A stretch of 64,000 bases of DNA from a virus (Duplodnaviria; Caudoviricetes): IMG/VR virus record IMGVR_UViG_3300020388_000011, positions 32,001 through 96,000 of that record. One strand, given 5' to 3'. Positions within the stretch are counted from its first letter, which is position 1. The number at the start of each line of letters is the position of its first letter. Shown piece after piece: positions 20,933-62,669 of the stretch. The position numbers and the translations under genes are program-made. The notes below the pieces were generated by a model, which did not search any database, was not told where the DNA came from, and saw only the letters and a program-made list of their open reading frames with translations.

Positions 20933-20966
20933 ATGTCTATAAATAATTATAGTCATTAATATGTAA

Positions 20967-37221: not shown

Positions 37222-39330
37222 ATGAGACTTTATTTCGGCAGAATTGCTCCAACAGAACCCCAGCAATCACAATTAGCTGGTGGTGGATGGTCTTGGAGAT
37301 ATAAAGTTCGTATTTTTGATAAACATCCTCCAGATAAGAATGTATTATCCGATGATGACTTACCGTGGGCTCAAGTATTGCTGCCTGTTACCGCAGGCTC
37401 TGGTGCCGCCAATTATGCGCAGACCCCATCATTAAATCAGGGGGATACTGTTAGTATTGCCTACTATGATGAAGATGAACAGCAACCAGTCATTACTGGA
37501 ATTCTTCCAAGAACTGATATAGTATCTAATGGTGATCCATCAGAAAACGGAAAAACGGGATATCTACCACATAGTGGATTTACAGAAAATAAAAATAAAA
37601 ATAGTAAAGTTCCTGATGATGAATCCAATCAAAATAATTTAAATAGCCAACCATCAAAGAGAACTGACAAATTAGCATCGGCTGTTGGTAGTAAAATTGC
37701 GTTGGCAGATACTTGTGATCCCAATGGATATAAAGCTTCTGCTGTAACCAATGAGATTAATAACTTACTGGCAGAAATTCAAAAATTTACTGACAATGTG
37801 GCTCGTGTTGAGTCTATGATTGCCGGTACAATTGATAGAGTACATGCTCTAGTGAATCCATATGTTGGAGAAATGATATTCAACTTATTTGATGGGTTAG
37901 TTCCTTTATTGAATGCTGGATTGAGTGCGTTATACAAAAAAACATTTGCCGCAGTTCTAGCAGCAACTCAAAATCCTGCTAAAGCTAAATTAGCAGCGGA
38001 AGCTGTTCTAATTGCTTTACAGCCACCAATTTTAATACTACAAGAAGCTATTCAATTGATAGCAAATGAAGTAGTCTCTGGTATGCTAACAAAAATTGAA
38101 GACCTAGTTAGAGATACTATCGAAAACAATGATAATTTCAGTAGCTGTGCTGGTGCTCAATTTAATTCTGCTCTAGTTAATTCAATTATTAATGATATTG
38201 ATGATGGTATTTCTCCATTACTAAGAGCTGTGGCGACTATTTTGAGTGGTGGATTTAGTACTGAAGATGCCCTACGATCCACTATAGATATTGTTAGAGA
38301 TTTTGCTGGGGGACTTTTGGCATTGAATCAGAGTGGTAATAAATGTAGTGGACTTGTGAAAGAATATATTGTTGGTCTTGGTGCTGCTGACAGTATTGGT
38401 GATATTTTGGACGATATACTTAAAGCAGCTAACGTTGCTAATGGGGCTATAGAAGAAATTACTGGTTCTGCTGATAGTTTGACCAGGCAATTTGGTGATT
38501 TCCCATTCTTGAGTGAATATTCTGGCAATACTAGTGCGATCTCTAATTGTACAACAGATCTCCCTACAACTTGTTTTGGACCACAAGTTCAAATTTTTGG
38601 GGGAAGGGGTGAAGGTGCTACAGCAGAGGCACTTGTTGGTAGGTATGTTGATACTGTAGATGAAAGAACTATCACCGATAAGCAAGGTGGTGTTGTTTCT
38701 ATCGAAGTGACTAATGGTGGGGAAGGTTATATATATCCACCATTTGTGGAAATTACAGACAACTGTGGGCTTGGGATTGGTGCTGTAGCAAGATCGGTTA
38801 TCAATAGGGAGGGTAAAGTAATTAGAATTTATATTGTAACTCCTGGAGAGGGCTATCCATCATCTGGTGAGGAGTTATTTGTTGTGAATGATGTACAGAT
38901 AATCACTGGCGGCTTTGGTTATTCTCCTGGTATCGTACAGGATCAGTATGGTGGAAGATATGAAGTACTTCCTAATGAAAGAGGAACGGTAATTAATATA
39001 TTACCAATTAATATCGTTCAAATCCCTAATGATGTTGATAGTAATGAACTTATCATCAATATACCTTCCGTAGATCCCCCAATTCCTCCTGGGGGAACTC
39101 TTGTTAACGACAGTCCAATTGCTTCTGAACCAATAAATACAGGTAAAATATATGATGCTAATGGTAAATTTGTAGCTAATGCCATTATTGGTAGTGGACT
39201 GACCTATACACCAGTCCTAGTGAGACTACCTACGGCAGAGCAAATTGCTGCTGGTGAGATTTCTGATAGTCTCACTCCAAGACTTCTACAGACAGAAGTT
39301 GTTCAAGTTATTGATTGTGTTGAGAGCTAA
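37222..39330 (+). CDS. gp5: Baseplate hub/central spike protein (N-terminal OB fold; no lysozyme domain seen)
   Basis: RYKVRI...H.......D.DLPWAQV..P.TAGSG and QQPVI.G form the gp5 OB-fold signature. Confidence 0.75.
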   Translation: MRLYFGRIAPTEPQQSQLAGGGWSWRYKVRIFDKHPPDKNVLSDDDLPWAQVLLPVTAGSGAANYAQTPSLNQGDTVSIAYYDEDEQQPVITGILPRTDIVSNGDPSENGKTGYLPHSGFTENKNKNSKVPDDESNQNNLNSQPSKRTDKLASAVGSKIALADTCDPNGYKASAVTNEINNLLAEIQKFTDNVARVESMIAGTIDRVHALVNPYVGEMIFNLFDGLVPLLNAGLSALYKKTFAAVLAATQNPAKAKLAAEAVLIALQPPILILQEAIQLIANEVVSGMLTKIEDLVRDTIENNDNFSSCAGAQFNSALVNSIINDIDDGISPLLRAVATILSGGFSTEDALRSTIDIVRDFAGGLLALNQSGNKCSGLVKEYIVGLGAADSIGDILDDILKAANVANGAIEEITGSADSLTRQFGDFPFLSEYSGNTSAISNCTTDLPTTCFGPQVQIFGGRGEGATAEALVGRYVDTVDERTITDKQGGVVSIEVTNGGEGYIYPPFVEITDNCGLGIGAVARSVINREGKVIRIYIVTPGEGYPSSGEELFVVNDVQIITGGFGYSPGIVQDQYGGRYEVLPNERGTVINILPINIVQIPNDVDSNELIINIPSVDPPIPPGGTLVNDSPIASEPINTGKIYDANGKFVANAIIGSGLTYTPVLVRLPTAEQIAAGEISDSLTPRLLQTEVVQVIDCVES

Positions 39331-40397: not shown

Positions 40398-40452
40398 CCC
40401 TCTGCTTCAACCCACCTAAATACACCAGCACCCGTTTTATTATTGACTAGTA

Positions 40453-43428
40453 ATGGCTATTCAATTTCCAGCAAATCCAAACATTGGCGATCTGTTTACA
40501 GACGTTTCTACAAATATCACTTACTTTTGGAGTGGTAAATATTGGTCTGCCCAAGGTCCAGGAACTGGCATAGGAGCCACAGGCGCTACTGGTTCCGTTG
40601 GATCTACTGGATTTGGTGCAACAGGCGCTACTGGTTTTAAGGGACAAAAAGGAAAAACTGGTTCTACTGGGGTCACAGGACCGACAGGACCTAAAGGTTT
40701 TATTGGCTTAACAGGAGCTACTGGTCCTGATGGATCACCTGGTGGTGCCACTGGACCCCAAGGTCCTCTAGGTGCTACTGGAAGTACAGGTCCTTTAGGA
40801 AGTACAGGTCCTTTAGGTTCTACTGGTGCCACAGGTCCTCAAGGTTCTCCTGGTGGAGCTACTGGTGCTACTGGTATTGCTGGTCTTACGGGAAATCCTG
40901 GTGCTACTGGCAGTGAAGGTCCTTCTGGATCCCCTGGTGGTGCTACTGGTGCTACTGGTTTACAAGGTCCTCGTGGTGCGACTGGTTCTGGTGCCACGGG
41001 TATTACTGGTGCTACAGGCTCACTTGGTCCTGTTGGTCCTCAAGGTTCACCCGGTGGTGCTACTGGTAGTACTGGTCCTTTAGGTTCTACTGGTGTTGGT
41101 TCTACAGGGGCTACTGGAATTAAGGGCGACATTGGATCCACTGGAATAAATGGTCCACAAGGTGCTACTGGTATAAGTATTACTGGTGCTACTGGTCCTT
41201 TCGGTCCTGGTGGTCTTCCTGGTTCTACTGGTTTGACTGGAACTACAGGAGCCACTGGTGAACTTGGTCCTGTTGGAACAACTGGATCTACGGGTCCTCA
41301 AGGTGATCCTGGTGGTGCTACAGGAGCTACTGGTATTATTGGTACTACTGGAGCCACGGGTATAACTGGTTCTACTGGTGCTAATGGTGCTACTGGTCCT
41401 CAAGGTCAAGCGTCTCTAGTCCCAGGTCCTGATGGTTCAACTGGTTCTACTGGACCATTGGGTTCTACTGGTGCCACAGGAATTACTGGTGCCACTGGTA
41501 ATGATGGTCCTACAGGTCCTTTAGGTCCTAGAGGTTTCGTTGGTTCTACTGGTGCGACGGGTATAGTAGGTCCTTCTGGTGGTATTACGAACCAGTGGGA
41601 AACTAGCGTATCAGTTCTAACTGCTAACAACGCAGCTTTAATCGCAGATTCCACGGGCTCTAATCTAAAAATATTTAAAGTATCAAAATTTGATCAAAGC
41701 TTTAATGATCAAACGGCATTCTTAAGTGGATTGGTACGGGGTAATACGATCACACTAGCTTCTGGTACTGGATCTTATATCTTTGAAGTTAAGGTTAACG
41801 GTGGTCTCGTCAATTCTGCTGGTGTTGAATGTTTCACTATCCTAGTTGAGTCAACAGGGGGTAGTGGAGTTCTTGATGCGGGTACAATTACATTAACCAA
41901 GGCAGCAACTAACGCAACATTTGTATTCTCTACAGTAAATATTTCGTATCCTAGTGCTGATGGAGACCTAACTATTGACTATAACTTTGAGTTCAATGGA
42001 TATCCAAAGTATTTGGCATTCTCTCCAACTGATGTTTTGGGTGAAGATGTAACACAGTTCTTCTTTGATCCTTTGGCTAATAGTGGAGCCTTTACTGAAT
42101 TCTATTTCCAAGCACAAATTACGGGCTCAATAAACGATTTTAGGTTTAATGTAGCAGGTGGTCATTATTACGCAGACATTAACTCTTGGCTATATGTTGG
42201 TCAAGTAGATACTTTATACGAAGTCCCTGTAGGTAGTGCTGATAATATCGCACAAGTTTGGAATGTTCAGGTTGCTGGTATATCCAAAGGTGCTACTGGT
42301 GTTGCTGGTTCTCCTGGTGGTGCTACTGGTGCCACTGGTATTGCAGGTCCTGCAGGATCTCCTGGTGGTGCTACGGGTGCTACGGGTATTCCTGGTACTC
42401 CTGGTCTAGCAGGTCTGGCTGGAGCAACTGGACCTAGTGGTGCTGCTGGTCTTCCTGGTATTCAAGGTGATCCAGGCGGTGCCACAGGTGCTACTGGATT
42501 TACTGGTGCTGTTGGTGCTACTGGTATTGATGGAATAATTGGAACAACAGGTGCCACAGGTCCTCAAGGTTCCCCTGGTGGAGCTACTGGTGCTACTGGT
42601 CTCCAAGGTTCTACTGGTTTAGGTTCTACTGGTGCCACAGGTCCTCAAGGTTCCCCTGGTGGAGCTACAGGTCCCGCAGGTTTACAGGGAAATCCTGGTA
42701 CAAATGGTATTCCTGGTAATCCTGGTACAAATGGTACTGGTGGTTCTACAGGTGCTACTGGTCCTCAAGGTACATTTGGATCAACTGGTGCCACTGGATT
42801 GACTGGTCCTACAGGTCTTGGTGAGCTTGGTGGTACAGGTGCTACGGGGGCTACGGGTCTTCCTGGTGCTGGTGGAACACCTGGTTCTGCTGGAATTGAA
42901 GGTGCCACAGGTCTTCAGGGTAATCAAGGCATATCAGGATTACAAGGTGTTGAAGGATTGGTCGGCGCTACAGGTCCTGTGGGTCCACAGGGTCCCACAA
43001 GCGGTGGTACAGGTGCTACTGGCTCTATTGGTCCACGGGGTTCTACTGGCGATAAGGGCGAGCCTGGTCCTCCTGGTCCTTTCGGCGGTCCTGCTGGTCC
43101 TCCTGGTCCTCCTGGTCCTGGTGGCGGTCCTACAGGGGCTACTGGTGCTACAGGTGTTCCTGGTGCTACTGGTGTGCAGGGCGAGAAAGGGGATGGTGGT
43201 TCACTCGGCGCTCCTGGTCCTACTGGTGTTGAAGGTCCCAAGGGTGATGGTGGAGCTACTGGTCCACAAGGTATTCAGGGAGTCCAAGGAAATAATGGTG
43301 GATTGGGTGCTACTGGTGCCACTGGACCTGATGTAAGGGCAGTTGGTGTTAACGCAATCTTTACCACAGCAGATGGTAAAACTATAACTGTTACTGATGG
43401 AATTGTTACCAATGTAGTTGACGCTTAA
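40453..43428 (+). CDS. Collagen-like fibre protein A (991 aa)
   Basis: N-terminal FP.NP..GD.F....Y.W.G..W cap and two long G-X-Y tracts ([12 protein letters not shown]) around a globular insert. Late-type TAAATA at 40417-40422. Confidence 0.85.
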
Positions 43429-43443
43429 CTTACACCTCTTATC

Positions 43444-46400
43444 ATGACTTATATTAATAAAAAAGTACCAGCAAATGGATCTCTACGTGTTGTCCGAAAC
43501 GGTCAGTTAGAGTATGCGGGACTTCCATTAAAGAGTGACAAAAACCAAATAGTCACATTCGATGTAAAGAATGATGAATTTGAGTCTACTAACTTAAAAG
43601 ACTTATTGGCTTTAGGTGGGGGTGGTACTGGTACTGCTTTGACTGTGCGAGAATCGCAGGGCTTTGGTGGTACTATTGGTGAAAGTCTATCTAATATTAA
43701 TACAATAACGTTTGATGAAAATACTGGCTTTAATGTAGAAGATGCTGGTAATGGTGAAGCATTTATTAGATTGGGCTCAGCATTTGCTCCTTGGTTTGTT
43801 GCGGATCAAGGAACATTAATACCAGATGGTGAAGAAGCTATCACCTTTGTTGCTGGTGTTGGTATTGCTATATCAACAAAAACTACAAGAACTGGTATTG
43901 GTACTACATTATCTAAAGCAATTATCTTTACGAGTACTGGTGTTCCTGGTCCTCCTGGTCCTGGTGGTGGTGCCACTGGTCCGCAAGGTGCAACTGGTCT
44001 TCAAGGATCCACTGGAGCTAGTGGATTTACAGGTGCCACGGGTTCTACTGGTCCTACTGGTGCCACTGGATTACCCTCTATTATTCCTGGTCCTCCTGGT
44101 CCTGGTGGTCAACAGGGCGCTACTGGTCCCACCGGTCCCCAAGGTTCTACTGGCGTACCAGGCGCTACAGGACCTAGAGGATTTATTGGTGCTAGTGGTG
44201 CCACAGGTCCTCAAGGTAGTACTGGTGTTCAAGGTGCTACTGGTACTACTGGTCCCCAAGGAACTACTGGAGCCACTGGATTTTTTGGTTCAACAGGTGC
44301 TACTGGTCTTAGTGTAATTGGATCTACTGGTGCCACGGGTCCCCAAGGTTCTACAGGCTCAACTGGTGCTACTGGAGTTTTTGGTTCTACAGGGGCTACT
44401 GGTACTGCTGGTCCCACTGGTGCTACAGGGGTAGGTCTTACTGGTGCTACAGGACCTACTGGGTCTACTGGAATTCAAGGCGCAACTGGTCCCCAAGGAA
44501 CTACTGGAGCAACTGGAATTGGCGCTACAGGTGCTACAGGTCCTACCGGTTCTACTGGTGCAACTGGTCCCCAAGGTACAACTGGAGCCACTGGATTTGG
44601 AGCAACAGGACCTACTGGGTCTACTGGGATTCAAGGCGCTACTGGTCCCAGAGGCACTACTGGTGCTACTGGGTCAGGTGGAACAGGTGCTACAGGATCT
44701 ACTGGAATTGACGGCGCTACTGGTCCCCAAGGAACTACTGGAGCTACGGGATTTGGTGCCACAGGACCTACAGGATCTACTGGAATTGAAGGTGCCACGG
44801 GTCCCCAAGGAACTACTGGAGCCACTGGGTTTGGAGCAACAGGACCTACTGGGTCTACGGGAATTCAAGGCGCAACTGGTCCCCGAGGAACTACAGGAGC
44901 AACTGGAATTGGTGCTACTGGGTCTACGGGAATTCGTGGCGCCACAGGATCCACTGGTCTTCAAGGTACCACTGGAGCCACTGGAATTGGTGCTACTGGG
45001 GCTACTGGAATTAGGGGTGCTACGGGAGAGGGTGGATCTTCAGGTGCAACTGGCGTCACAGGAGCAACTGGTGTAGGTGCTACGGGTGCTACTGGTCTTG
45101 CAGGTGCTACAGGTCTCGCAGGTTCTACTGGTCCATTGGGCTCTACTGGAGCTACTGGTGCCCCTGGAACTGGGGGATCTACTGGAATTGGAGGGGCTAC
45201 GGGTGCTACCGGATTTGGTGCTACTGGCGCTACAGGTATATCTGGATCTACGGGAGCGACTGGTTCTCTAGGTTCTACTGGAGCTACTGGTTCTTTGGGT
45301 GCTACTGGTACTCAAGGTGCTACTGGATTGTTGGGTTCTACTGGAGCTACTGGTCCATTGGGTGCTACAGGTGCTACAGGATTAGGTGCTACAGGTCTAA
45401 TAGGAGCTACTGGTCCGTTGGGTGCTACAGGTGCTACAGGATTAGGTGCTACAGGTCTCAGAGGATCTACTGGTCCTACTGGAGCTACTGGTTCTTTTGG
45501 TGCTACAGGTCTTGAGGGTCCTCTGGGATCTACTGGAGCAACAGGATTAGGTGCAACTGGTATTCGGGGTGCTACGGGTCCACTAGGCTCTACAGGTGCT
45601 ACGGGCGCTCCAGGAACAAGTATCAATGTAAAGGGAACAGTACCAACCTTTGCTGATCTACCAACAGTTGGTAATCAGGTAAATGATTTATATTTGGTTG
45701 CTGATGAGGGGGGTGAAGGTTATGTTTGGGATGGTACAGCATGGAATGCTGTTGGTAAAATTCAAGGTCCCACTGGTCCTCAAGGGGCTACTGGCGCAGG
45801 TGCTACAGGTGCTACAGGTCCATTAGGTGCTACAGGTGCTACTGGTCCACTGGGTTCTACAGGTGCAACTGGTGTATTTGATAATACTAGTGATATCACT
45901 ACTACTGGTAATATTGAAGCCTCAATTATTACAGCAACTGTAAAATTTATAGGTGATTTTGATGGTAATGCGTCAAGCGCAGATCAAGCAGACTTATCCC
46001 TTGAATCACAAGTATCAACAGCAGGTGGAACTGATGATGACCATAGAGTTATAATTGTTGATGGTGTTAATGGACCACTCCCACTAGAAAGTGATAATGG
46101 ATTATTTTACAGACCATTGTCAAATACCTTATTTGCTGGTAGATTTATTGGTGAAGGTGTTATTTCCTCTTTTGCTGACGATACTAGTGGCACCCAAGCT
46201 ATATCTAATAGCACAACTTGGATCAATTCAACGTTGTCAGTTTCTATCACAAAGCAATTATCAACTAGTTCTATCCTTGTTCTTGTAAGTCAATCATATT
46301 TGGCTAGTTCTGCGGTTGGGGGGATCAGAATACAGAGGGGAGCCACTACAATTTTGAGTGCTGATGCTGATATTGGAGTATTAAGTGTCACTACTGGTAC

Positions 46401-46575
46401 ACCATTGACTACCACATCTCTATTGAATAGGTGGTCTGCTTCCTACTTGGATTCAACTACATCTACTGGAAATATTACATATTCTACGCAGTTTAGGAGA
46501 AGCTCTGGTAGTGGTTTCTTTGCGACTCAACCATCGGGTAATGTTAGTACTATCCAAGTATTTGAGATTGGCTGA
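43444..46575 (+). CDS. Collagen-like fibre protein B (1043 aa)
   Basis: About 560 aa G-X-Y tract dominated by GAT/GST/GTT/GPT, a YVWDGTAW module and a C-terminal beta-sandwich. Confidence 0.85.
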
Positions 46576-46580
46576 TCCTA

Positions 46581-46589
46581 TGGTATAAT
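46581..46589 (+). promoter_or_regulatory. Extended -10 promoter for the modification-enzyme operon, inside an inverted repeat
   Basis: TGGTATAAT flanked by ATCCTATG (46575-46582) and CATAGGAT (46591-46598). Confidence 0.6.
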
Positions 46590-46614
46590 ACATAGGATAC
46601 ACTCAATATACATT

Positions 46615-47688
46615 ATGAGATTTCATATTCTAGGTTTGCCTCATACGGTGTCTAGTAAGGAATATGTTGCTTGTGCTTATACCCAAAAGGTAGTGAAGTT
46701 CGGCAAGATGATGAAAGAACGTGGTCACGAGATCATTCACTACGGTCACGAAGATAGTGATCTAGTATGTGATGAGCACGTTACCGTGACTACCAATGCC
46801 GACCTAGAGAAAGCATATGGATCCTATGACTGGAGAAAGAACTTCTTTAAGTTCAATACGGGTGATTACGCATACCAAACATTCTATAAGAATGCCATTG
46901 AAGAAGTTGGAAAGAGGAAACAACAACATGATTTCATTTTACCTTTTTGGGGATCAGGTACTCGCCCTATTTGTGATGCTCATCCTGACCTTATCACTGT
47001 AGAACCTGGTATTGGCTACGCAGGAGGTCATTGGGCTAACTGGAAGATCTTTGAGAGCTATGCTATTATGCATGCCTATCAAGGCTTGGCGGCTGTTGGC
47101 ACTTGTCAGCAAAGCTGGTATGATGTAGTCATTCCAAACTATTTCGATTTAGAGGACTTTGAGTATGCGCCAGAGAATAAAGAGGATTATTTTCTATTTT
47201 TGGGTCGTGTATATTCGGGTAAGGGTATTGACATTGCCGTCCAAGTAACTGAGAAGATTGGAGCCAAGCTAGTAGTAGCTGGTCAGAACCCAGAGAACAG
47301 AACATTCCCAGACCACGTTGAGTTTGTTGGCTATGCTGACGTAGAGACTCGTAAGCGCCTTATGAGCCGCGCTAAGGCGTCTTTTGTAGCTTCCACATAC
47401 TTGGAGCCATTTGGTGGCGTACAGGTGGAGAACTTGCTCTCAGGCACCCCTACGATCACTACTGACTGGGGTGCATTCGTTGAGAACAACCCACATGGAG
47501 TAACGGGATTCCGTTGCCGCACATTCGCTGATTTTGTAGATGCCGCTAAAAACATTGATAGCATTGATCCTAGCGTATGCCGTTCTTTTGGTGAACAGTT
47601 CTCATTAGAAAATGTAGCACCACGATATGAGAAGTTCTTCCAGGATGTTCTCAATGTATATACTGGGGAAGGTTGGTATAAACTATGA
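46615..47688 (+). CDS. GT-B (GT4-like) glycosyltransferase
   Basis: FLFLGRV..GKG, VEFVG and [20 protein letters not shown] (EX7E) motifs. Confidence 0.9.
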
Positions 47689-48587
47689 AGAGAATAGCAT
47701 TCTTTACATATAGTGAATGGGCTTTCGGGTCTATTCATAAGGCTTTAATAAAAGAACTTTATAAAAAAGGTATTGATGCAAATATTATTGATTGGAATAT
47801 TACATACAGCAGAGAAGAGTTTGATGCTTTTATGGATATCTATGATGTATTTGTTACAGTACCAGGAAACGCAGTAACTGCTCTACGATCCTATGGAGTT
47901 CCTTATAGTAGTATCATTGCTATTGCCCACGGTAGATATGATATACAATTTGGTTTAGCGGAAGGTAATGAGTTTGATGCCTTCCGTGCTTATGGTGGAG
48001 TTAGTTTAGATTTAGGAGAATATTCATATAACCTTGGTATTACTAAGGACTTCTATGTGGTTCGTAATGGTATTAACTTTGATGAGTTCTACCGCCCAGT
48101 AGCAGAACAGCTAAATGTTATTGGGTATTCGGGTGCTATTGAAAAAGATAATCCCCACTCTGATATTAAGGACTGGAAGCGTGGTTATCTAGTCAAAGAA
48201 ATCGCATCTAGAACCAATACAAAGATACTTCTACCGTCACAAAGAAGTCATCTAGCAATGTCTGCTTACTATAAAGATGTAGATTGCCTTATGGTATCTT
48301 CCACAGAACAAGAATCTTGTGGTCTTCCTTTGTTAGAAGCAGCCGCAGCAGGTAGGTTACCTATATCAACTCTCACTGGTATCAATAGAGATTTTGAAGT
48401 TCCTACTGGCGTTATATTGCCTATGGAAGAAGATCGCTATATATTTTCTGGCATGAATGCCATCAATACACTTAAAGAAAATCCCAGCTTTTTTAAACAG
48501 CTATGTACAAATGCCCAAGATTTTGCTAGAATACATTACGATTGGTCAGTTGTTATAGACGGCTGGATTACCTTACTTACTTTATAA
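47685..48587 (+). CDS. GT-B glycosyltransferase
   Basis: V.NGI, KRG and [12 protein letters not shown]...[14 protein letters not shown] (EX7E) motifs. ATGA overlap with the previous gene. Confidence 0.85.
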
Positions 48588-48591
48588 TATT

Positions 48592-49188
48592 ATGCTTACC
48601 GACTTAATACAAATTGTAGACTGCCTTACTCCCGAAGAGACTAAAAGGTGTCTTGAACTATTAGAAAATGAAGAATGGTCACCTACTACCGTATTTGGTA
48701 TGAGTGGTAGCGAGGTAAATCCTGGTATTCGCCTTAATGATAGAGTGTGCTTAAATGATGCATCAGAATGTGCTAATATTATGCATGAGGGTATGAATGC
48801 CGCTCTATTAAAATATAAAGATACTGTGGCTGGAATTAACCAAGAGTTTCAAAAGTTTCCTATCCCAGGTACATTTAGAACAAATTGTTTCCGAGAATCT
48901 ATTCAGGTTCTCCGATATACTGAAGGTCAGTATTACAAGTGGCATACTGATGAGGCTACTGATAAGACCCTTAATGAAGTCAATAGAACCATCTCTATGG
49001 TTTTATATCTAACAGACGATTTTGAGGGTGGAAGAACTCACTTTATCCACCGTTACTATAAGCCAAAAGCTGGTCAGGTATTAGTATTCCCATCTAACTG
49101 GTGTTTCCCACATGAATGCGAAGTAATCACCAAAGGAACTAAAATCGCAGCAGTTACTTGGTATCACTCACATTATAATTTTGACTAA
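48592..49188 (+). CDS. 2OG-Fe(II) oxygenase, prolyl-4-hydroxylase-like
   Basis: QVLRY..GQ.YKWHTD (HxD), LYL.DDFEGG.T.F, P.AG..LVFP, distal His (FPHE) and GTK with the 2OG-binding Lys as in P4H. Confidence 0.88.
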   Translation: MLTDLIQIVDCLTPEETKRCLELLENEEWSPTTVFGMSGSEVNPGIRLNDRVCLNDASECANIMHEGMNAALLKYKDTVAGINQEFQKFPIPGTFRTNCFRESIQVLRYTEGQYYKWHTDEATDKTLNEVNRTISMVLYLTDDFEGGRTHFIHRYYKPKAGQVLVFPSNWCFPHECEVITKGTKIAAVTWYHSHYNFD

Positions 49189-49379
49189 TGAGTAAAACTA
49201 CACCACAGACAGTCCATGAAGCACATCTAGCATCATTTAGTGGAAAATTAAATATGGTAGCTGCCGCAGCACATTGTGGTCTAACATTGAGGGAGTTTAA
49301 GATGACCTTTAGAGAGTTTCTTAAATATAATCCAGTCTCATATACAACAGAAACAGCTACTCAGCTTAAATTATTTTAA
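49188..49379 (+). CDS. Small hypothetical protein (possible HTH)
   Basis: 63 aa with LNMVAAAAHCGLTLREFK; TAATG-coupled to the oxygenase. Confidence 0.55.
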   Translation: MSKTTPQTVHEAHLASFSGKLNMVAAAAHCGLTLREFKMTFREFLKYNPVSYTTETATQLKLF

Positions 49380-49426
49380 GTGGCTAAATAAGGTACGAAT
49401 ACATTATTTGTTATTGGTTGATTATT

Positions 49427-52400
49427 ATGCCCTTAAACAAGTTAGAAAACTTTATTAAGAATACTGATGGTCGCACCATATATGTCAACCCGAATGACAT
49501 CAATGCGACTGACGCTATTTCAAATCAAGGAACATCCTTAACAGAACCTTTTCGTACTGTACAACGAGCTTTAATTGAATCCGCTAGATTTTCGTATGTT
49601 CGTGGAAATGACAACGATCTTATTGAGAAGACTACCATTGTTCTTTATCCTGGAAATCATACTATTGATAATAGACCAGGATACGGAATCAAGACTAATA
49701 ATATTGGGGCTGCTGTAGCTGTTTCTCCAACTGGTGAGGAAGTCGCTCCTGCCACAGTATTTAACTTAAAAAGCGATACTAACTTTGACATTGAGTCAAC
49801 TAATAATATTCTATGGCATTTTAATTCAATCTATGGTGGTGTTGTAGTACCTCGTGGCACATCTATCGTAGGTATGGATCTACGTAAGACAAAGATTCGC
49901 CCCAAGTATGTACCAAATCCAACCGACCCATCAGTGGATGGATCAGCCATTTTCCGCATAACTGGATCATGTTACTTCTGGCAGTTTACTATTTTTGATG
50001 GACCCGAGAATGGTCTTGTATATACTGACCCCAAAGACTTTTCGTTAAATAATCAGTCACGCCCATCATTCTCTCACCACAAACTAACAGGCTTTGAATA
50101 TGCTGATGGTGTCAACCCAATTGAACGTTTTGGTGAATTAACTGATCTACAGATGTATTATGATAAGCTATCAAATGCTTATAATGAAGCATCTGGTCGT
50201 AATATTGATGAGAAATTCCCACAAGATCCAGAGGGATTCGCGCCAATGCTTCCCGAGTATCAGATTGTGGGTGCATTTGCTACTGATCCTATTCGTATTG
50301 CTTCACTAATTTCCGGTGATGGATTTACTCCCGATTCTGTTATTACAGTAGAGACTGTGATTCCTCATGGATTGTCAACTGGAACTCCAATTAAAATTCG
50401 TGGGGTTGCTGTATCTGATTATAATATCTCAACTAAAGTTGCGGTTATTATTAGCCCCACTAGTTTTACATATCCTCTTGCATTCGTAAGACCTGAACTC
50501 CCAGCACGTCCATCAGTATCCTCTGCAACTGTAACCGTTGAGACTGATACTGTTACTGGTGCATCTCCCTACATTTTTAACGTATCGATGAGATCCGTTT
50601 GGGGGATTAATGGGATGCTGGCTGATGGTGCCAAAGCGACCGGATTCCGTAGCATGGTCGTTGCGCAGTTCACCGCGATCAGCCTTCAAAAAGATGACCG
50701 TGCGTTTGTTAAGTATAACGATCAGTCACGTAGATATAATGGTATTAATGTTAGTACAACTGTTCGTGGCGCTGAACTGTCAGCGGAATCTTCATCAACA
50801 AATAGTGCTACTGTTTATCACTTGGATCCTAGGGCAGTTTATCGCCCAGAATGGGAGACTACTCACATTAAAATGAGCAACGACGCTGTTATTCAGATCG
50901 TTTCTGTGTTTGCTATTGGCTTTAATCAACATTTTGCTGCTGTTAATGGTGCGGACGCATCCATTACCAACTCAAACTCCAACTTTGGACAATTTGCTCT
51001 TCTATCCATTGGATTTAAGAATGATGCATTTGCAAAAGATGATACTGGATTTGTTACACAAGTCATTACACCCAAAACCGCATATAATCCATCAGAAGAT
51101 GAAATTTCTCGTATTGGTTGGGTTAATATTGACTTTGATATAACACGTACTCAAGCTATTCCCGCTCAACTATATCTACTCGGATATACTAATAAAGAGG
51201 ATAGACCTCCTTTCATTAATCAGGGCTTCCGTTTAGGTGCAAATAACGAAGAAGTTTTATATCAGGAGACCGCAGCCTCTGGAGACAAGCAAGCAAGCAT
51301 CTTCATGGTAGATAATCTTATTAGTGGTGCTAATAGGGCAGCTTTTGGAACTAATATTGCTGTTAAATCTTATCCGGTATTGGCTGGTCCAGGTCAAGGA
51401 CCCACATCAGGTTCAACATTGACCCTACCACCACATGGATTATTGAATGGGGAGACTATTAGAGTATTTTCAGCTAATGCTGATCTACCAGAAAATATGG
51501 AAGAAGGTCAGCTATATTATGCTAACGTTGTTGACACTGAAAATATTAGAATCTCAACATCAGAGTCAAACGCACTAAATGATATCTTCCTAGAAATATT
51601 TGGTGGTACAGAACTACGTGTTGAGTCTCGTGTAAATGATAAGTCTGCGGGTGAGCCAGGTCACCCAATGCAGTTTGATGACATTGTAGGTAATTGGTTT
51701 GTTCATACTAATAGCAACAGTGAGTTGTATCAATACATTATCTTAAATCCAACTTCACAAGAAGGATTTGACTTTGTTTCATACTATCTTAGAGCAAGTG
51801 ACAATAGAAGTCTAGATGATAAATTGTATCGTTTGCGTTATGTTATTCCCAAAGAAACTTCTAATGCCAAGCCACCAACTCCTGGATATGTTATTCAGTC
51901 ATCATCAACTACTGGAGCTAGAAATAATGATGATTTTGATTTAACAACTCTAACGTTTAGGGATTATGAGTATGATAGAAATCCAAGATATATTGTAGAT
52001 TGTAATTATATTCCCATTACAGCAGAAATTGAGGTTAGGAGTCAAATTCCACACCAACTATCTGTTGGGGATAAAATTAATACGCTAAATATTACATCTA
52101 CAAAAAATCCAGACGCAGTAGATGGTAGAGGTTATGACGGAGAGTTCCTCGTAACTCGTGTTGATAATGCGAGGGTATTTAGATATTCTTCTACGGACAT
52201 TAAGGGATTCACTAGGGATTTGATTGGTGACTTATTTACCAATGATACAAACGATAGAAATATTCTATTGCCCCGTTTCCAACGTAAAGATAATCAGACT
52301 GATGTATTCGTATATCGTATTGAGGAGATTGTTGCATTCACTGAAGGTGTTCGTGATGGCATCTATCACTTGTTCTGCGTTAATGGTTCTAACGCTGTAA

Positions 52401-55400
52401 CAGAGACATTTACTAAAAGAAATTATAATCAACCAATTGAGGATTTGTACCCCCAGTTAGATACTGATAATATTAATAATAATCCAGCTTCTTCTGTTAC
52501 CTTTGCTGCTAGAGCACCTCTTGGTAAAGTTTCAATTGATAATAAGCAGACATCTATTACTAGAGAAACTATTGACAAATTGACCAAGAGTCAAAATGAA
52601 AATGTCATTGAACTAGTTACTGAAGGGGCATCAGAAACTGTAATTGAATTTCAGCGTGAGCACCAATATAATGGAGTATATAACTACACAACTTTAAATG
52701 GTGGTAGTGGATATACTGATGGCACTTACTATAATGTAAAGCTTCTAACGGATGGTATTTTTTGGGATGGTGCTAGTGCTGAAGTTACTGTTATCGCAGG
52801 CTCAGTAACTGAGTTGGTAATTATGGATCCAGGTTCTGGATATAAGGCTGGGGACACACTATTTCTTGACCCCTCAGGTTTAGGTCCTGGGGGTGGTGCA
52901 ACTGTTTCTATTAGTGCTAGTGACATTGAAAGTTCTATTGGATTCATCGCCCAATTTACTGGTGGTGGAGTACTAAATCCAGATTCTTTTGCTCCTATTA
53001 TTGATGTACCTTCGGCATCATCCATTACGGTTCATAATGAGTCTATCGCTGGTGTTACTACATCAATGTATGTTCTAACAACCGACAGTGGTACAGATAT
53101 TACATCTACACAATTTGATGCCGCAAGTGGAATAACTACATTTACGACCAATTCAACAACTGGATTTGGTTTACAAAGGGGTAATAGTTTTGTTGTTTTT
53201 GACGTAGATGGTAAAAACCTAGGTAAGTATTATGTCTCTGCCGTACCTGTACCATCTACAGTTACCGCTGTAACAAATGCCGATGTCAGTAGTGCTGTTA
53301 CATTGGGTAAATGTGGTTATGATGATAACGATGCAAATACTGGACCAGGGGGAGAAAATATTGGAGTACGTGGTGTCGCAGCATTTGATCTTGGTATCTT
53401 CTACTTAGTAGATGGTTCAGGAACAGACAATCAACTAACATTATCTGCCAATGATGGTGGAGTCACTGGTAGTGTTGCCCAAAAACTTCCTCTAGGAAGA
53501 TATTTACAACTTGGTTCAGAAATTGTGCGTATTGCTAGCACAAGCTTTGATGGACTAAATCTCAATATAGTTACTGTTATTCGTGGTGCTCTTGGAACTA
53601 GCGTTATTAATCATCCAGTAGGTACAAAGGTACGTGCCATCAAACCTCTAGCTATTGAGCTTCGCCGCCCATCTATCCTACGTGCTTCAGGTCATACTTT
53701 TGAGTATCTAGGATATGGTCCTGGTAACTACTCTACAGCACTACCACAGCTACAGGTTCGTCAGTTACCTGATGACGAAGTATATCTAGTGCAGGCGCAG
53801 GAGTTATCTTGTGGTCAGGTTGTATATACTGGTATGTCTGATAATGGAGATTTCTATATCGGTAATACCAAGTATTCTGCAACTTCTGGGACACAGATTA
53901 CATTTGACGTTCCTATTCCCACTATTGCTGGGCAAAACGCATCCAACAACAACGTTGTGTTTGATGAAGTTATCATCAACCGCCGCTTATTCGTTGCTGG
54001 TGGAGATGCTAATGAGGTTCTATCACAATTTGATGGTCCTGTTAAATTTACAGAAACAGTCAATCTAGAGTCATCATTAGGAGTTACTGGCAATAGTTCA
54101 TTAAATACTCTAAGTATTCTTTCAACATTAAACTCAGTATCACTTGATAATGGTGGAGCTCTAACTGTTCGCGGTGGTGCTGCTATTGCTAAAGACTTAT
54201 ATGTTGGTGGGGATGTTGAACTAACTGATCTCACAGTAAATGGCAACCTAGATGTGTTAGGGGACGCAGAATTTGGTCAGGATGTTGATATTGTCGGAGC
54301 TGTTGATATTGGTGAAACATTAACAGTGGGTGGTAATTTTACTGGCAATGGCGCCACCAATCAATTCAATGGTACTCTAGGTGTAACGGGTGATGCTGAT
54401 TTTGACAGTGATGTCAATATTGATGGGTCTGTTGACATTGGTAATGATCTAGATGTAGATGGAAACTTGGTTGTTAATGGATCTACTAACGCTATTAATG
54501 GTAATTTAACCGTAACAGGTAATATTACAATGACCAGGACAGACAGAGATCTCTACACTAATGGGATTATTGCTGTTAGTGGTAGTTCTCAAATGGACCT
54601 TTGGAGAAACCAGGTTAATAATTCTGCTGATATCAGTATTGGTGGTTCTGGTAATCAAGCTAAAGTAATTTTTAATACTACTAAGCTTGGTACAGGTGAG
54701 GGTGGTAGTGATGGTATCGCTTCATCCGATGGTGGTGTTGACATCAAAGGCTCTTTAGTTGTCCGCGATAAGGTTATTGCTAAAGAGTTTGTTGGTGATG
54801 GATTAGGTAAGCCTGGTTCAATTATTATGTGGGGTGGAAACGCAACTGAAAATAATGAGCAAACTCCTGGTAGTATTCCAAAAGGATATCTACTATGTAA
54901 TGGTAGATCATTGTCCAAAAATGCGTATCCTAAATTATATAGAGCTATCAGAGGTACTCATGGAGAAACTTCTACCACGTTCAGAATCCCTGATTTGCGT
55001 GAAAGATTTATTGTTGGTGCTGGGGGAAATAATCCCAATGTAACTCAGGTAAATGGATATAACATTGCTGGTACTGGTGGTGGAAATTTTGTCCAATTAA
55101 CAACAGCTCAAATTCCTGCTCATAACCATAGTATCAATCAACGATCTGTTGCCCACACCCACGATGTTAGTGGCACCACTAGTCAATATAATTGGAGACA
55201 CTCTCATTCAGGAACTGCTAATACACAAGGTGCCCATGGTCACACTCTCCAGAGTCAGGGAGATCATACTCACCCGCAGGATTTCCAACCCGCTGGTGGT
55301 CACTCTCACGGTTATACCCGAACTAGCGGTTCAAGCGGCGGGAGAGAAAATGGAGACAATAATGTTGTTGCAGAGCTAAACAACTTTAACTCTGGAACCA

Positions 55401-55660
55401 ATAACAATGGTACTCACGCTCACCCCCTTACGCTTTTTCCAAACGGCAGACATAGGCATAGTGTGGAGGGTGGCTCTGGAAACCACCAACACCCAGTTAG
55501 CACGGATTCGAGAGGAGAACAGCACAGTCATCAATGGAGTGGTACAAGTACTTCTAACCCGATTACACATAATCATACTGCTAATGATACTGGGGGCGGT
55601 CAGACACACGAGAATCGCCCCCCTTATATGGCTCTCTGCTATATTATCCAATACAAGTGA
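49427..55660 (+). CDS. Large tail fibre protein with tail-collar domain and His-rich needle
   Basis: Start MPLNKLENF after TAAATA (49385-49390). Collar PGSIIMW...P.GYLLCNG......YPKLY.AI...FRIPDLR.RF.VG, 11 HxH motifs, ending HENRPPY.AL.YII. Confidence 0.85.
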   Translation: MPLNKLENFIKNTDGRTIYVNPNDINATDAISNQGTSLTEPFRTVQRALIESARFSYVRGNDNDLIEKTTIVLYPGNHTIDNRPGYGIKTNNIGAAVAVSPTGEEVAPATVFNLKSDTNFDIESTNNILWHFNSIYGGVVVPRGTSIVGMDLRKTKIRPKYVPNPTDPSVDGSAIFRITGSCYFWQFTIFDGPENGLVYTDPKDFSLNNQSRPSFSHHKLTGFEYADGVNPIERFGELTDLQMYYDKLSNAYNEASGRNIDEKFPQDPEGFAPMLPEYQIVGAFATDPIRIASLISGDGFTPDSVITVETVIPHGLSTGTPIKIRGVAVSDYNISTKVAVIISPTSFTYPLAFVRPELPARPSVSSATVTVETDTVTGASPYIFNVSMRSVWGINGMLADGAKATGFRSMVVAQFTAISLQKDDRAFVKYNDQSRRYNGINVSTTVRGAELSAESSSTNSATVYHLDPRAVYRPEWETTHIKMSNDAVIQIVSVFAIGFNQHFAAVNGADASITNSNSNFGQFALLSIGFKNDAFAKDDTGFVTQVITPKTAYNPSEDEISRIGWVNIDFDITRTQAIPAQLYLLGYTNKEDRPPFINQGFRLGANNEEVLYQETAASGDKQASIFMVDNLISGANRAAFGTNIAVKSYPVLAGPGQGPTSGSTLTLPPHGLLNGETIRVFSANADLPENMEEGQLYYANVVDTENIRISTSESNALNDIFLEIFGGTELRVESRVNDKSAGEPGHPMQFDDIVGNWFVHTNSNSELYQYIILNPTSQEGFDFVSYYLRASDNRSLDDKLYRLRYVIPKETSNAKPPTPGYVIQSSSTTGARNNDDFDLTTLTFRDYEYDRNPRYIVDCNYIPITAEIEVRSQIPHQLSVGDKINTLNITSTKNPDAVDGRGYDGEFLVTRVDNARVFRYSSTDIKGFTRDLIGDLFTNDTNDRNILLPRFQRKDNQTDVFVYRIEEIVAFTEGVRDGIYHLFCVNGSNAVTETFTKRNYNQPIEDLYPQLDTDNINNNPASSVTFAARAPLGKVSIDNKQTSITRETIDKLTKSQNENVIELVTEGASETVIEFQREHQYNGVYNYTTLNGGSGYTDGTYYNVKLLTDGIFWDGASAEVTVIAGSVTELVIMDPGSGYKAGDTLFLDPSGLGPGGGATVSISASDIESSIGFIAQFTGGGVLNPDSFAPIIDVPSASSITVHNESIAGVTTSMYVLTTDSGTDITSTQFDAASGITTFTTNSTTGFGLQRGNSFVVFDVDGKNLGKYYVSAVPVPSTVTAVTNADVSSAVTLGKCGYDDNDANTGPGGENIGVRGVAAFDLGIFYLVDGSGTDNQLTLSANDGGVTGSVAQKLPLGRYLQLGSEIVRIASTSFDGLNLNIVTVIRGALGTSVINHPVGTKVRAIKPLAIELRRPSILRASGHTFEYLGYGPGNYSTALPQLQVRQLPDDEVYLVQAQELSCGQVVYTGMSDNGDFYIGNTKYSATSGTQITFDVPIPTIAGQNASNNNVVFDEVIINRRLFVAGGDANEVLSQFDGPVKFTETVNLESSLGVTGNSSLNTLSILSTLNSVSLDNGGALTVRGGAAIAKDLYVGGDVELTDLTVNGNLDVLGDAEFGQDVDIVGAVDIGETLTVGGNFTGNGATNQFNGTLGVTGDADFDSDVNIDGSVDIGNDLDVDGNLVVNGSTNAINGNLTVTGNITMTRTDRDLYTNGIIAVSGSSQMDLWRNQVNNSADISIGGSGNQAKVIFNTTKLGTGEGGSDGIASSDGGVDIKGSLVVRDKVIAKEFVGDGLGKPGSIIMWGGNATENNEQTPGSIPKGYLLCNGRSLSKNAYPKLYRAIRGTHGETSTTFRIPDLRERFIVGAGGNNPNVTQVNGYNIAGTGGGNFVQLTTAQIPAHNHSINQRSVAHTHDVSGTTSQYNWRHSHSGTANTQGAHGHTLQSQGDHTHPQDFQPAGGHSHGYTRTSGSSGGRENGDNNVVAELNNFNSGTNNNGTHAHPLTLFPNGRHRHSVEGGSGNHQHPVSTDSRGEQHSHQWSGTSTSNPITHNHTANDTGGGQTHENRPPYMALCYIIQYK

Positions 55661-55666
55661 TACTTT

Positions 55667-55695
55667 AGTCCCCTTAAAAAAGGGGGCTTTTTTTT
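55667..55695 (+). terminator. Intrinsic terminator
   Basis: AGTCCCC...GGGGGCT hairpin followed by a T-run. Late promoter TATAAATA follows at 55699-55706. Confidence 0.75.
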
Positions 55696-55737
55696 GTATA
55701 TAAATAATACCAAGGCATTCTAACCATCTTATAAGTA

Positions 55738-61075: not shown

Positions 61076-61240
61076 ATAAACATATAAGGTTAAAATAAAA
61101 TAATGTCAGCTATCATTTTTCCAGAAAATCCCACACTAAATGAACAGTTTCTAGCGGGTGATTATGCGTTTCAATGGAATGGAACTGCTTGGATTGGAAT
61201 ATCAGTATCACCAGAGGGATTAGAAGGTGCTACTGGACCC
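61061..61240 (+). repeat. Direct repeat copy 1 (about 180 nt; copy 2 at about 61932-62110)
   Basis: GTCATTCGGAGATAAATA plus the leader and the first ~45 codons are duplicated. Confidence 0.85.
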
Positions 61241-61924
61241 CAAGGACCTAATGGTCCCACTGGTCCTGATGGTCCTTCTGGTCCTGACGGTCCTGATGGT
61301 CCCACTGGTCCTGATGGTCCTTCTGGTCCTCCTGGTCCAAGCGTCACTGGTCCTCCTGGTCCCGATGGTCCTGACGGTCCCGATGGTCCTCCTGGTCCAA
61401 GCGTCACTGGTCCTCCTGGTCCCGATGGTCCTCCTGGTCCTTCAGTAACTGGTCCTCCTGGTCCTCCTGGTCCTGTTGGTCCTGTTCCTAGTTTTGCTTT
61501 TGTGTCTCATCAACAACCAAGTGGAACAAATGGTGGGGCGTTAATTGCTGGATATCAAACGCAACCATTGAATACTGAATTTGATCCCGATGGTATAGTT
61601 ACTCTGAGTAATAACCAATTCACTCTTGGTGTTGGTACTTACGTAATTGAGTGGGCAGCTCCTGCGCGGGATAATAGTGGGCAAAGATCAAAACTGACAA
61701 ATGTTACATCTAATTCGGTTCAAGCATTAGGTAGCTCCGTTATCAGTTCGAGTAGTGGTAAGTTTTCAAATGGTACAACGAAAGTAGTGATTTCATCTAA
61801 TACAACATTTAAAATTGAAACTTATTCTGTACAAGGATCTTTTGGTAATACTGAAGGTCTAGGGGGTGCTGTCAGTTCTGGTGACAACGAAGTTTATGCT
61901 TCAGTCTCTATTTTTAAATATTGA
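61103..61924 (+). CDS. Mini collagen-like fibre/decoration protein (GPD/GPP/GPS repeats)
   Basis: FPENP..N.QF....Y..QWNG.AW cap, G-P-X tract and a C1q/BclA-C-like beta domain. Late-type ATAAATA upstream. Confidence 0.8.
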
Positions 61925-61973: not shown

Positions 61974-62669
61974 ATGGCAGCCATCACTTTCCCAGAAAAT
62001 CCAGTACTAAACCAGCAGTTTCTAGCGGGTGATTATGCTTTCCAGTGGAACGGGGCAGCTTGGATTGGAATATCAGTATCACCAGAAGGGCTTGAAGGTG
62101 CTACTGGTCCAGAAGGACCTAGTGGTGCCGATGGTTCTACTGGAGCCACTGGCGATGATGGTCCTAGTGGTCCCCAAGGTACGACTGGCGCTACTGGCGC
62201 TAATGCTATTGGTCAGGTAGTATCAACAACTAAGACTGATACTTATTATGCCGCAACTAGTAACTGGATTGATATTCCTAGTTTTAGTATTACTCTAACT
62301 CCATCATCAGCTTCTAGTAAGTTTATGGTGTTTGTTAATATCAAAGCATCAGTGACCCCCAACCAAGTTGGGGCATTCAGACTTGTTAGGAATGGTACTC
62401 TAGTCGGTAACGGTGTTGCAGCTGGTCAACGTCCAGCAGCATTTTCTAGGATTGTAAATGTTGATAATGCTTTCGCTCAGATGTTTGACGTAGCACATTC
62501 ATACTTGGATTCGCCAGCAACAACATCAGCCGTTACTTATACAGTACAGATGAAAAATCTCACTGGCTTTGGCGATGAAATTTTAACAATTAACCGTGTC
62601 GTTTCTGATAATGATATTGGATTAAATGCAAGGTTGGCATCAACTATCTCAGCCATTGAAGTTGTATAG
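61974..62669 (+). CDS. Paralogous mini collagen-like protein with a different C-terminal domain
   Basis: Near-identical N-terminal 45 aa, a short GAT/GPS tract and a C-terminal beta-sandwich (LDSPATTSAVTY). Confidence 0.8.
   Translation: MAAITFPENPVLNQQFLAGDYAFQWNGAAWIGISVSPEGLEGATGPEGPSGADGSTGATGDDGPSGPQGTTGATGANAIGQVVSTTKTDTYYAATSNWIDIPSFSITLTPSSASSKFMVFVNIKASVTPNQVGAFRLVRNGTLVGNGVAAGQRPAAFSRIVNVDNAFAQMFDVAHSYLDSPATTSAVTYTVQMKNLTGFGDEILTINRVVSDNDIGLNARLASTISAIEVV

Follow-up and report, generated by a model that had tools for sequence, protein, structure and literature searches.

Collagen-like fibre genes beside two glycosyltransferases and a prolyl-4-hydroxylase-like oxygenase in an S-CAM7-like cyanophage: a possible virion-fibre maturation locus

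Background

We analyze a locus of collagen-like fibre genes and putative protein-modifying enzyme genes in a 64,000-nucleotide (nt) stretch of viral DNA (Caudoviricetes), positions 32,001 to 96,000 of the 110-kb IMG/VR viral record IMGVR_UViG_3300020388_000011 (hereafter, we refer to this whole stretch as the window and give coordinates in its numbering unless indicated otherwise). The locus, positions 40453-49379, lies among the late structural genes in the baseplate/tail-fibre module of an S-CAM7-like, T4-type cyanomyovirus. It comprises two collagen-like fibre genes (col1 and col2), two glycosyltransferase (GT) genes (GT1 and GT2) and a gene for a 2-oxoglutarate (2OG)-Fe(II) oxygenase. A preliminary description of this DNA had proposed that the three enzymes glycosylate and hydroxylate the phage's own collagen fibres. 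Our comparison across related genomes lends this interpretation partial support: glycosylation of the collagen fibres is its best-supported step and is plausible from the genomic record, and the oxygenase keeps company with a different, non-collagen fibre.

Marine Synechococcus and Prochlorococcus are killed in large part by cyanomyoviruses, the fibres of which determine host range. In the literature, cyanophage 2OG-Fe(II) oxygenases have been read as nitrogen-stress genes (PMC3037559) and cyanophage GTs as modifiers of the host surface or of DNA (PMC12801897). The literature that we searched holds no proposal of collagen modification in cyanophages and offers no function for the gene set of S-CAM7 and ACG-2014f, the nearest cultured relatives; the S-CAM7 papers, which concern coevolution and pili, are silent on these genes, and a single S-CAM7 database record labels its oxygenase a "putative prolyl 4-hydroxylase". 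The present analysis covers gene identities, folds, catalytic residues, synteny and co-occurrence statistics, and it is from these that we infer every substrate assignment and the timing of expression.

Results

Organization of the locus

The open reading frames (ORFs) of this late structural stretch all lie on the plus strand. A gp5-like baseplate hub gene (37222-39330) and an unassigned ORF of 354 amino acids (aa) are followed by col1, col2, GT1, GT2, the oxygenase gene, a 63-aa ORF, a giant tail fibre gene that ends at 55660 and a tail protein gene. The reading frames from GT1 onward are tightly coupled: GT1 and GT2 overlap in an ATGA, 4 nt separate GT2 from the oxygenase gene, and the latter overlaps the 63-aa ORF by 1 nt. 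This confirms the coupled enzyme operon that had been described right after the collagen genes.

S-CAM7 (Mazuvirus) shares 85% nucleotide identity with this phage across the enzyme genes, and ACG-2014f (Atlauavirus) ~75%. At the protein level, GT1 is 96% identical to its S-CAM7 and 84% to its ACG-2014f counterpart, and the oxygenase 88% and 57%, respectively. The corresponding loci (CC030809_00013-18 in S-CAM7, gp015-021 in ACG-2014f) likewise run from collagen through GT1, (GT2), oxygenase and a small ORF to the giant fibre, with the difference that ACG-2014f is without GT2 and has two additional small ORFs.

The collagen-like fibre genes

col1 (40453-43428, plus strand; 991 aa; phrog_3420) and col2 (43444-46575, plus strand; 1043 aa; phrog_36982) match the Pfam Collagen family (PF01391) with E-values of 1e-60 and 6e-59, in agreement with the two collagen-like genes of ~1000 aa first noticed here. 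col2 starts 15 nt past the end of col1 and has no promoter of its own. In col1, an N-terminal cap with the pattern FPxNP..YxWxGxxW leads into collagen, a 230-aa globular insert (residues ~380-612), more collagen and a short C-terminal domain. In col2, a 165-aa N-terminal domain is followed by a long Gly-X-Thr collagen and a 230-aa C-terminal domain, for which a search of the ESM Atlas returned only unnamed viral clusters.

Counted in runs of at least four triplets (the longest has 25), col1 holds 219 Gly-X-Y triplets in 22 runs and col2 holds 188, with GAT and GST the most frequent across both proteins. Threonine occupies 57% of the Y positions of col2; in col1 it reaches a plurality only (38%, followed by Pro at 13% and Gln at 10%), so that the earlier statement that Y is mostly Thr is right for col2 and too strong for col1. 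The "GPP runs" reported with it were an overstatement, as there are five GPP triplets in all, three in col1 (residues 872-887) and two in col2. Proline nevertheless stands at 28 Y positions of col1 (X-Pro-Gly sites), for example in a recurring GSPGGATG motif. Lysine at Y is rare (3% in col1, and outside the eight commonest Y residues in col2).

S-CAM7 encodes one collagen of 1545 aa (positions 9327-13964 of its locus, L001). Over the N-terminus and central domain it is 79-86% identical to col1, and over the C-terminal domain 50% identical to col2. It thus joins the N-terminal half of col1 to the C-terminal domain of col2, which points to recombination (or a split or fusion) inside the collagen repeats. 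Separately, RNA-library contigs from three runs contain a joint from 42606 to 43968 that would fuse col1 to col2; its short side is 22 letters long, and it may be a repeat artefact.

At least eight collagen-like ORFs are present in the 110-kb record. Two small ones follow a helicase gene within the window (61103-61924, with 28 triplets of the GPD/GPP type, and 61974-62669, with 13 triplets), and four lie upstream of the window (genome positions 9132-21462). One of these four, a protein of 1131 aa with 23 GPP and 26 GPD among its 72 triplets, is the most Pro-rich collagen of the genome and its richest candidate substrate for a prolyl 4-hydroxylase (P4H).

The glycosyltransferases

GT1 (46615-47688, plus strand; 357 aa; phrog_3408) is a GT4-family glycosyltransferase with matches to PF00534 (Glycos_transf_1, E = 2e-15) and PF13692. 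Its best PDB match is TeGSS (7fg9), a cyanobacterial alpha-1,2-glucosyltransferase of family GT4 (E = 4e-21, residues 163-349), followed by tetrahydrobiopterin glucosyltransferases. An EX7E motif (E-PFGGVQV-E, ~residues 263-271) lies in the C-terminal domain, and a GT-B fold is predicted from the 7fg9 match together with the full-length PHROG glycosyltransferase family. GT2 (47685-48587, plus strand; 300 aa), a compact GT-B glycosyltransferase, has a weak Pfam match and was assigned through its family profile and an AlphaFold (AF2) model. The profile, built from 18 homologues, matches GT-B C-terminal domains (5i45 at E = 3e-8, and GlgA), and the two EX7E glutamates, E210 and E218, are invariant across these homologues. 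For the model (predicted local distance difference test, pLDDT, 87.6), the top Foldseek matches are BshA, MshA, TeGSS and PimA, at a TM-score of ~0.7, and PglA. Both genes had been taken for GT-B glycosyltransferases, correctly by these measures.

Among isolates, orthologues of GT1 were found only in S-CAM7, ACG-2014f and S-CBWM1 (32% identity). Metagenomes contain 5385 family members at E <= 1e-10, many of them fused to methyltransferase domains, and IMG/VR contains 179 relatives. Judged from this distribution, the GT1 family is very large and mobile, and the GT cassette is a mobile insertion with many other contexts. GT2 accompanies GT1 in 31 of 80 GT1 loci. Sugar-type methyltransferases (FkbM, Methyltransf_23) and further GTs often flank GT1 or are fused to it, a signature of glycan building; the other neighbours of GT1 include further methyltransferases, a GT2/HtrL protein, a papain-like peptidase, and neck, gp9/10-like and terminase genes. 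As to the fusions themselves, many homologues that are 76-94% identical to GT1 (P0008, P0016, P0018, P0031 and others) carry an N-terminal Methyltransf_23-type or a C-terminal FkbM domain. GT1 ORFs of 540-600 aa occur in some loci, and the methyltransferase fusions recall the multidomain glycan-building enzymes of chloroviruses.

The oxygenase

The oxygenase (48592-49188, plus strand; 198 aa; PF13640, 2OG-FeII_Oxy_3) is, from its sequence and predicted structure, a single-domain collagen-type P4H-like enzyme of the P4H clade. The P4H-type HxD..H..K signature to which attention had been drawn is borne out: H118-x-D120, H174 and K184 (Lys at His+10) are invariant in 28 orthologues. Lys rather than Arg at this 2OG-binding position separates collagen-type P4Hs from the PHD/PPHD type. 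Compared with the PDB, the family profile matches the P4Hs of Bacillus anthracis (E = 1e-15) and Chlamydomonas (5e-10) and the vCPH protein of PBCV-1 (3e-9), and more weakly the human collagen P4H C-P4H alpha2 (1.5e-5) and P3H1 (4e-4); only prolyl hydroxylases were found. The top structural matches of the AF2 model (pLDDT 90.3) are also exclusively prolyl hydroxylases.

Collagens at the glycosyltransferase loci

In 53 dereplicated IMG/VR groups, a collagen is found at gene position -1 of GT1 in 10/50 cases (20%) versus 26/538 (~5%) elsewhere within 8 genes (odds ratio 4.9, Fisher p = 4e-4), a p-value which, like the others given here for co-occurrence, overstates independence since the sequences are phylogenetically related. 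The collagens next to GT1 fall into at least six architectures with unrelated N- and C-terminal domains, and their sole common feature is the Gly-X-Thr repeat. As they are unrelated outside the repeats, the common denominator is the repeat itself. Composition points the same way: the median fraction of Thr at Y is 0.52 in loci with the GT only (97% of the collagens have at least 0.3) versus 0.13 in loci with the oxygenase only (Mann-Whitney p = 3e-14).

Collagens occur in every one of the eight long records (at least 139 kb) that have GT1, among them three contigs of 164-199 kb without any within 10 kb of the GT. In S-CBWM1 (Aokuangvirus, outside Kyanoviridae), a GT directly follows a 328-aa collagen annotated as "tail fiber" with Thr at 43% of its Y positions; by sequence, this is an independent lineage with the same arrangement. 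Together, these genomic comparisons support a non-random link between the GT1 family and Gly-X-Thr collagens.

Collagens and the giant fibre at the oxygenase loci

Relatives of the oxygenase orthologue number 137 in IMG/VR, at 38-61% identity, with a further one in P-SSM2 at 42%. They sit in a recurrent block of [collagens], a ~110-aa ORF, a ~169-aa ORF, the oxygenase, a ~68-aa ORF, the giant fibre and a ~670-aa ORF, in which the most constant neighbour is the giant non-collagen fibre, downstream of the oxygenase in 49/58 loci. An ORF of 61-93 aa fills the slot between the two in most oxygenase loci; in the window, this conserved slot is taken by the 63-aa ORF (49188-49379, plus strand; phrog_1920).

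The giant tail fibre (49418-55660, plus strand; ~2077 aa; phrog_529, E = 0), whose likely start is the ATG at 49427, is a core cyanomyovirus gene with a tail-collar domain, a His-rich C-terminus and homologues in 461 phage records. A scan of it found neither collagen repeats nor any obvious Pro-rich repeat. Past the tail-collar domain, its C-terminus (54800-55660) contains very many His-x-His motifs, and the gene conserved just upstream encodes an iron-dependent oxygenase. Two genes past the giant fibre, in loci L178-L257 and in the oxygenase loci, a conserved ORF of ~385 aa has 15-35 Gly-X-Y-like triplets. We rejected this ORF as a collagen: Gly stands at many of its Y positions, as in a glycine-rich protein mis-scored by simple collagen counters.

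True collagens lie upstream of the oxygenase in 19/28 dereplicated orthologue groups, versus 0/80 loci (1.3 Mb) of an S-RIM2-like lineage used as control, in which the same fibre is present without the oxygenase orthologue. Collagens near the oxygenase are also richer in proline. The median fraction of Pro at Y is 0.08 there versus 0.01 in GT-only loci (p = 4e-6), a value of at least 0.1 is reached by 49% versus 3% of collagens, and Pro at X is likewise higher. In P-SSM2, the orthologue comes after five collagen-like ORFs in which Pro makes up 20-30% of the Y positions, with no GT at this place.

Relationship among the three enzymes

Of the 80 GT1 loci, only those of the S-CAM7 and ACG-2014f type also have the oxygenase orthologue, and two more loci with both (L099, L101) came from the search with the oxygenase. 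We therefore rejected one conserved three-enzyme module. The claim that the three enzymes form a single collagen-modification module is not supported as stated either: the GT cassette is mobile, and the oxygenase is tied more tightly to the giant fibre than to collagens. From the gene orders, the cassette appears to have been inserted between the collagens and the oxygenase block in the S-CAM7/ACG-2014f lineage. The comparison of genomes for co-occurrence of Gly-X-Thr collagens with the three enzymes, which the preliminary description had suggested, therefore divides: it turned out positive for GT1, through the enrichment at position -1, and mixed for the oxygenase, with true collagens upstream in 19/28 groups and an orthologue in a collagen-free genome (see below).

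Promoter-like elements and expression

A late-promoter-like box, CTAAATA, lies at 40416-40422 (plus strand), 31 nt upstream of the col1 ATG, and another at 49384-49390 (plus strand), before the giant fibre. The box matches 7/8 positions of the published cyanomyovirus late consensus NATAAATA (PMC2984593). These are motif matches only; CTAAATA is not enriched in the window (16 found versus 14.9 expected), and only its placement before late genes is suggestive. The best sigma70-type promoter candidate in the interval 39-56 kb, TTGAGA-16 nt-TGgTATAAT (46562-46589, plus strand; 11/12 positions, with the TG extension), precedes GT1, and its TATGnTATAAT is invariant in five relatives whose flanks diverge. 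As motif matches, then, the host-type extended -10 before the enzymes and the late-type box before the fibres hold as they had been described.

From the promoter types, it is possible that the enzymes are made before their substrates. A terminator scan found no strong terminator between col1 and 55667, where the first one after the late promoter at 40416 begins, an intrinsic-terminator-like hairpin with a T run (55667-55688, plus strand). Read-through from the late promoter would therefore bring the enzymes to late expression as well. An 8-bp dyad, ATCCTATG...CATAGGAT (46576-46599), encloses the -10 box of the GT promoter and is present in the two closest contigs and not in S-CAM7 or locus L007; going by its position and sequence, it may serve as an operator or as a hairpin at the 3' end of the col2 message. 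In two studies, metatranscriptome contigs (X5, X8 and X9; X19) span the locus, with X8 running as a single contig from col2 onward (45429-56500); with flat depth, possible carry-over of viral DNA and no transcript starts, they are uninformative on timing and promoter use.

Discussion

A possible virion-fibre maturation locus

The reading that we favour, while giving it a little less than an even chance, is that of a virion-fibre maturation locus in which the GT4 pair O-glycosylates threonine of the collagen stalks and the P4H-like enzyme hydroxylates proline of fibre proteins. Under this reading, col1 and col2 would be trimeric collagen-stalk fibre proteins with stalks mostly of Gly-(Ala/Ser/Pro)-Thr, and a two-gene cassette of cytoplasmic, retaining-type GT4 (EX7E) enzymes with its own host-type promoter would have been inserted beside them. 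The cassette would equip Y-position threonines of the phage's own collagen fibres, ahead of assembly or in its course, with a short O-linked glycan at least two sugars long, which relatives with the GT-methyltransferase fusion would also methylate. The triple helix would gain stability from the glycan, and the fibre a coat. The probable role of the oxygenase is hydroxylation of proline in fibre proteins of the virion, for which the 28 X-Pro-Gly sites of col1 are candidate substrates, neither proven nor exclusive. Location speaks for a role in the fibre module, as the genes lie between the gp5-like hub and the giant fibre, on one strand and with no terminator until 55667.

A broader proposal is possible, with the balance tilted against it in our judgment. 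A mobile GT4 cassette (with or without a second GT and a methyltransferase) found in many aquatic myoviruses would glycosylate the Gly-X-Thr stalks of unrelated tail fibres, yielding a viral "glyco-threonine collagen" in which the sugar replaces hydroxyproline as helix stabiliser and coats the virion. In S-CAM7 and ACG-2014f, this cassette would have come to lie beside a P4H that hydroxylates X-Pro-Gly of the same fibres.

Alternative explanations

Several observations weigh against fibre maturation, including those that favour its rivals below. The evidence is genomic, its co-occurrence statistics are drawn from related sequences, and orthologues of both the GT and the oxygenase occur in part independently of collagen genes, which the preliminary description had named among the findings that would refute it. 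The record has at least eight collagens and the most Pro-rich one lies ~50 kb away, so adjacency is not specific. For the GTs, the acceptor threonine is proposed from the gene neighbourhood only, and the closest solved GT4 relatives of GT1 and GT2 use small-molecule or lipid acceptors, not protein. They could instead be moron or auxiliary genes that remodel a host glycan (lipopolysaccharide, cell wall, S-layer) or a small molecule, for example in superinfection exclusion or protection from grazing, and that lie near fibres since the region is a hypervariable insertion hotspot. Such remodelling is the customary reading of cyanophage GTs (PMC12801897), and it would suit both a conserved host-type promoter belonging to the cassette itself, typical of early genes, and a content (GT4, GT2/HtrL, FkbM methyltransferases) like that of O-antigen clusters. 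About half of the GT1 loci are without a collagen within 10 kb, some of them in metabolic contexts. On a 193-kb IMG/VR contig (L030, positions 6118-13617; L035, L048 and L062 are similar), GT1 (77% identical) and GT2 stand far from collagens, with a methyltransferase, a different 2OG-FeII_Oxy_3 oxygenase, two fatty-acid desaturases and an ATP-grasp enzyme, a second, non-structural context of the cassette. A GT1 copy 81% identical to the phage gene also occurs among other GTs on a 3.3-Mb bacterial contig (L176, positions 10001-13225), in a neighbourhood that may be a transferred island; it adjoins a GT25 gene and a 696-aa multi-domain GT-like/TPR protein with a Thr/Ala-rich linker. What makes host-glycan remodelling the less likely reading in our view is that collagens are enriched precisely at position -1, beside otherwise unrelated fibres, that the compositional link to Thr at Y is strong, and that every long GT1 record has collagens as well. 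Moreover, the annotated recurrent neighbour clusters include no flippase, polymerase or initiating phosphoglycosyl transferase, families that were not searched for directly. Hypermodification of phage DNA, in which bases would be hydroxylated and then glycosylated as in T-even, RB69-type or base-J systems, seems to us scarcely credible. Phage DNA glycosyltransferases do share the GT4-like fold and match the same PDB entries, 7fg9 and 5zfk (PMC13326640); we rejected DNA glycosylation on this basis, the likeness being generic to the fold. Its P4H type sets the oxygenase apart from TET/JBP and from thymidylate-synthase-like 5-hydroxy- or hydroxymethyl-pyrimidine synthases, its gene and those of the GTs belong to the structural and not the nucleotide-metabolism module, and cyanomyoviruses are not known to have modified or glycosylated DNA (PMC2984593).

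For the oxygenase, it is quite possible, though we lean against it, that the enzyme acts not on collagen and instead matures the giant fibre or another virion protein, or hydroxylates a host protein as Pseudomonas PPHD does EF-Tu, with closeness to collagens a by-product of synteny. The giant fibre follows immediately in the great majority of loci, usually past the same small ORF. It is also the downstream neighbour in the 210-kb, 100%-complete (CheckV) genome behind locus L146, where the orthologue lies directly upstream of it and a search for collagen gave no Pfam match, the sole run of 10 Gly-N-N codons being a Gly-rich stretch. Nine of the 28 orthologue groups are without a true collagen within 10 kb; among the remaining 19, five have upstream collagens that are nearly free of Y-proline (at most five). 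We thus rejected strict covariation of oxygenase and Y-proline as a rule, for all that the medians differ. S-RIM2 has P4H-like paralogues, with Lys at His+10, near fibres and no collagen at all. The top structural match of the oxygenase is PPHD bound to EF-Tu, in a fold search that mixes the EF-Tu/HIF type (PPHD, PHD2) with collagen and algal P4Hs and cannot separate them. At E <= 0.001, the family profile matches collagen-type, algal and viral P4Hs and P3H1 only, not PHD or PPHD, and Lys stands in place of Arg at the 2OG-binding position. Collagen as substrate is further favoured by the true collagens upstream of most orthologue groups and none of the control loci, by the higher proline content at X and Y in collagens near the oxygenase, and by the want of an obvious Pro-rich repeat in the giant fibre. 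Since the orthologue is kept in a complete, collagen-free genome, collagen is not the sole or ancestral substrate of the oxygenase group; from the genomic distribution, it is at most one target, and proline hydroxylation of collagen is one of several options. Very improbable, finally, is a metabolic role, with the oxygenase as an auxiliary gene whose product would use up or sense 2-oxoglutarate and so manipulate nitrogen-stress signalling of the host. That role has been proposed for cyanophage 2OG-Fe(II) oxygenases generally (PMC3037559), in a proposal that names no prime substrate; the present orthologue group is fixed in position within the late fibre module and has the complete P4H-type active site of a class that acts on proteins.

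Implications and comparison with known systems

If the GT cassette does glycosylate fibres as proposed, it would be the first bacteriophage system for post-translational modification of collagen. It would assign a definite role to a protein family of more than 5000 metagenome members and make fibre glycans a new variable in how marine viruses adsorb, stay stable and resist grazing or proteases. Under the broader proposal above, cyanophage GTs and 2OG oxygenases considered "auxiliary metabolic" would be virion maturation enzymes. Because of the orthologue in a collagen-free genome, a collagen role of the P4H-like enzyme is not to be taken for granted. Cultures of S-CAM7 on WH7803, with nearly identical genes, make the hypothesis directly testable.

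The kinds of system involved, viral collagen modification and phage virion glycosylation, are already known, and the present finding is a genomic one. Giant viruses likewise encode collagen-like or Pro-rich proteins together with a hydroxylase and a glycosyltransferase (the lysyl hydroxylase/glucosyltransferase L230 and R699 of Mimivirus; the P4H vCPH, 5c5t, of PBCV-1), and the oxygenase described here is a sequence relative of PBCV-1 vCPH (E = 3e-9). Mimivirus differs in its GT-A glycosyltransferases and hydroxylysine acceptor, whereas the enzymes here are GT4 proteins of the GT-B type, the proposed acceptor is Thr and the host is bacterial. Indeed, a Pfam search of the six ORFs for Mimivirus-type lysine modification found no PLOD or GT25 domain, and Lys at Y is scarce. 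Among solved structures, the B. anthracis P4H (3itq/5hv0) is the best relative of the oxygenase and has about the same single-domain size; its physiological substrate is itself unsettled, and here the substrates would be virion proteins.

For glycosylation, mycobacteriophage GTs encoded beside structural genes reportedly O-glycosylate virion proteins in the host cytoplasm, as Freeman et al. are said to have described in 2023 (cited in PMC12801897). That system resembles the present one by description only, its targets being capsid and tail-tube termini, not collagen repeats. The BclA-type (GPT)n repeats of the Bacillus exosporium carry O-linked oligosaccharides on Thr, so that BclA is a glycosylated Gly-X-Thr collagen-like protein of the sort proposed here, alike in repeat type. 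In the vent worm Riftia, a cuticle collagen with Thr in place of hydroxyproline owes stability of its triple helix to galactosyl-Thr at Y. By analogy only, as this is an animal protein made with unrelated enzymes, the glyco-threonine collagen of Riftia would provide a physical rationale for glycosylating the Gly-X-Thr stalks of cyanophage fibres.

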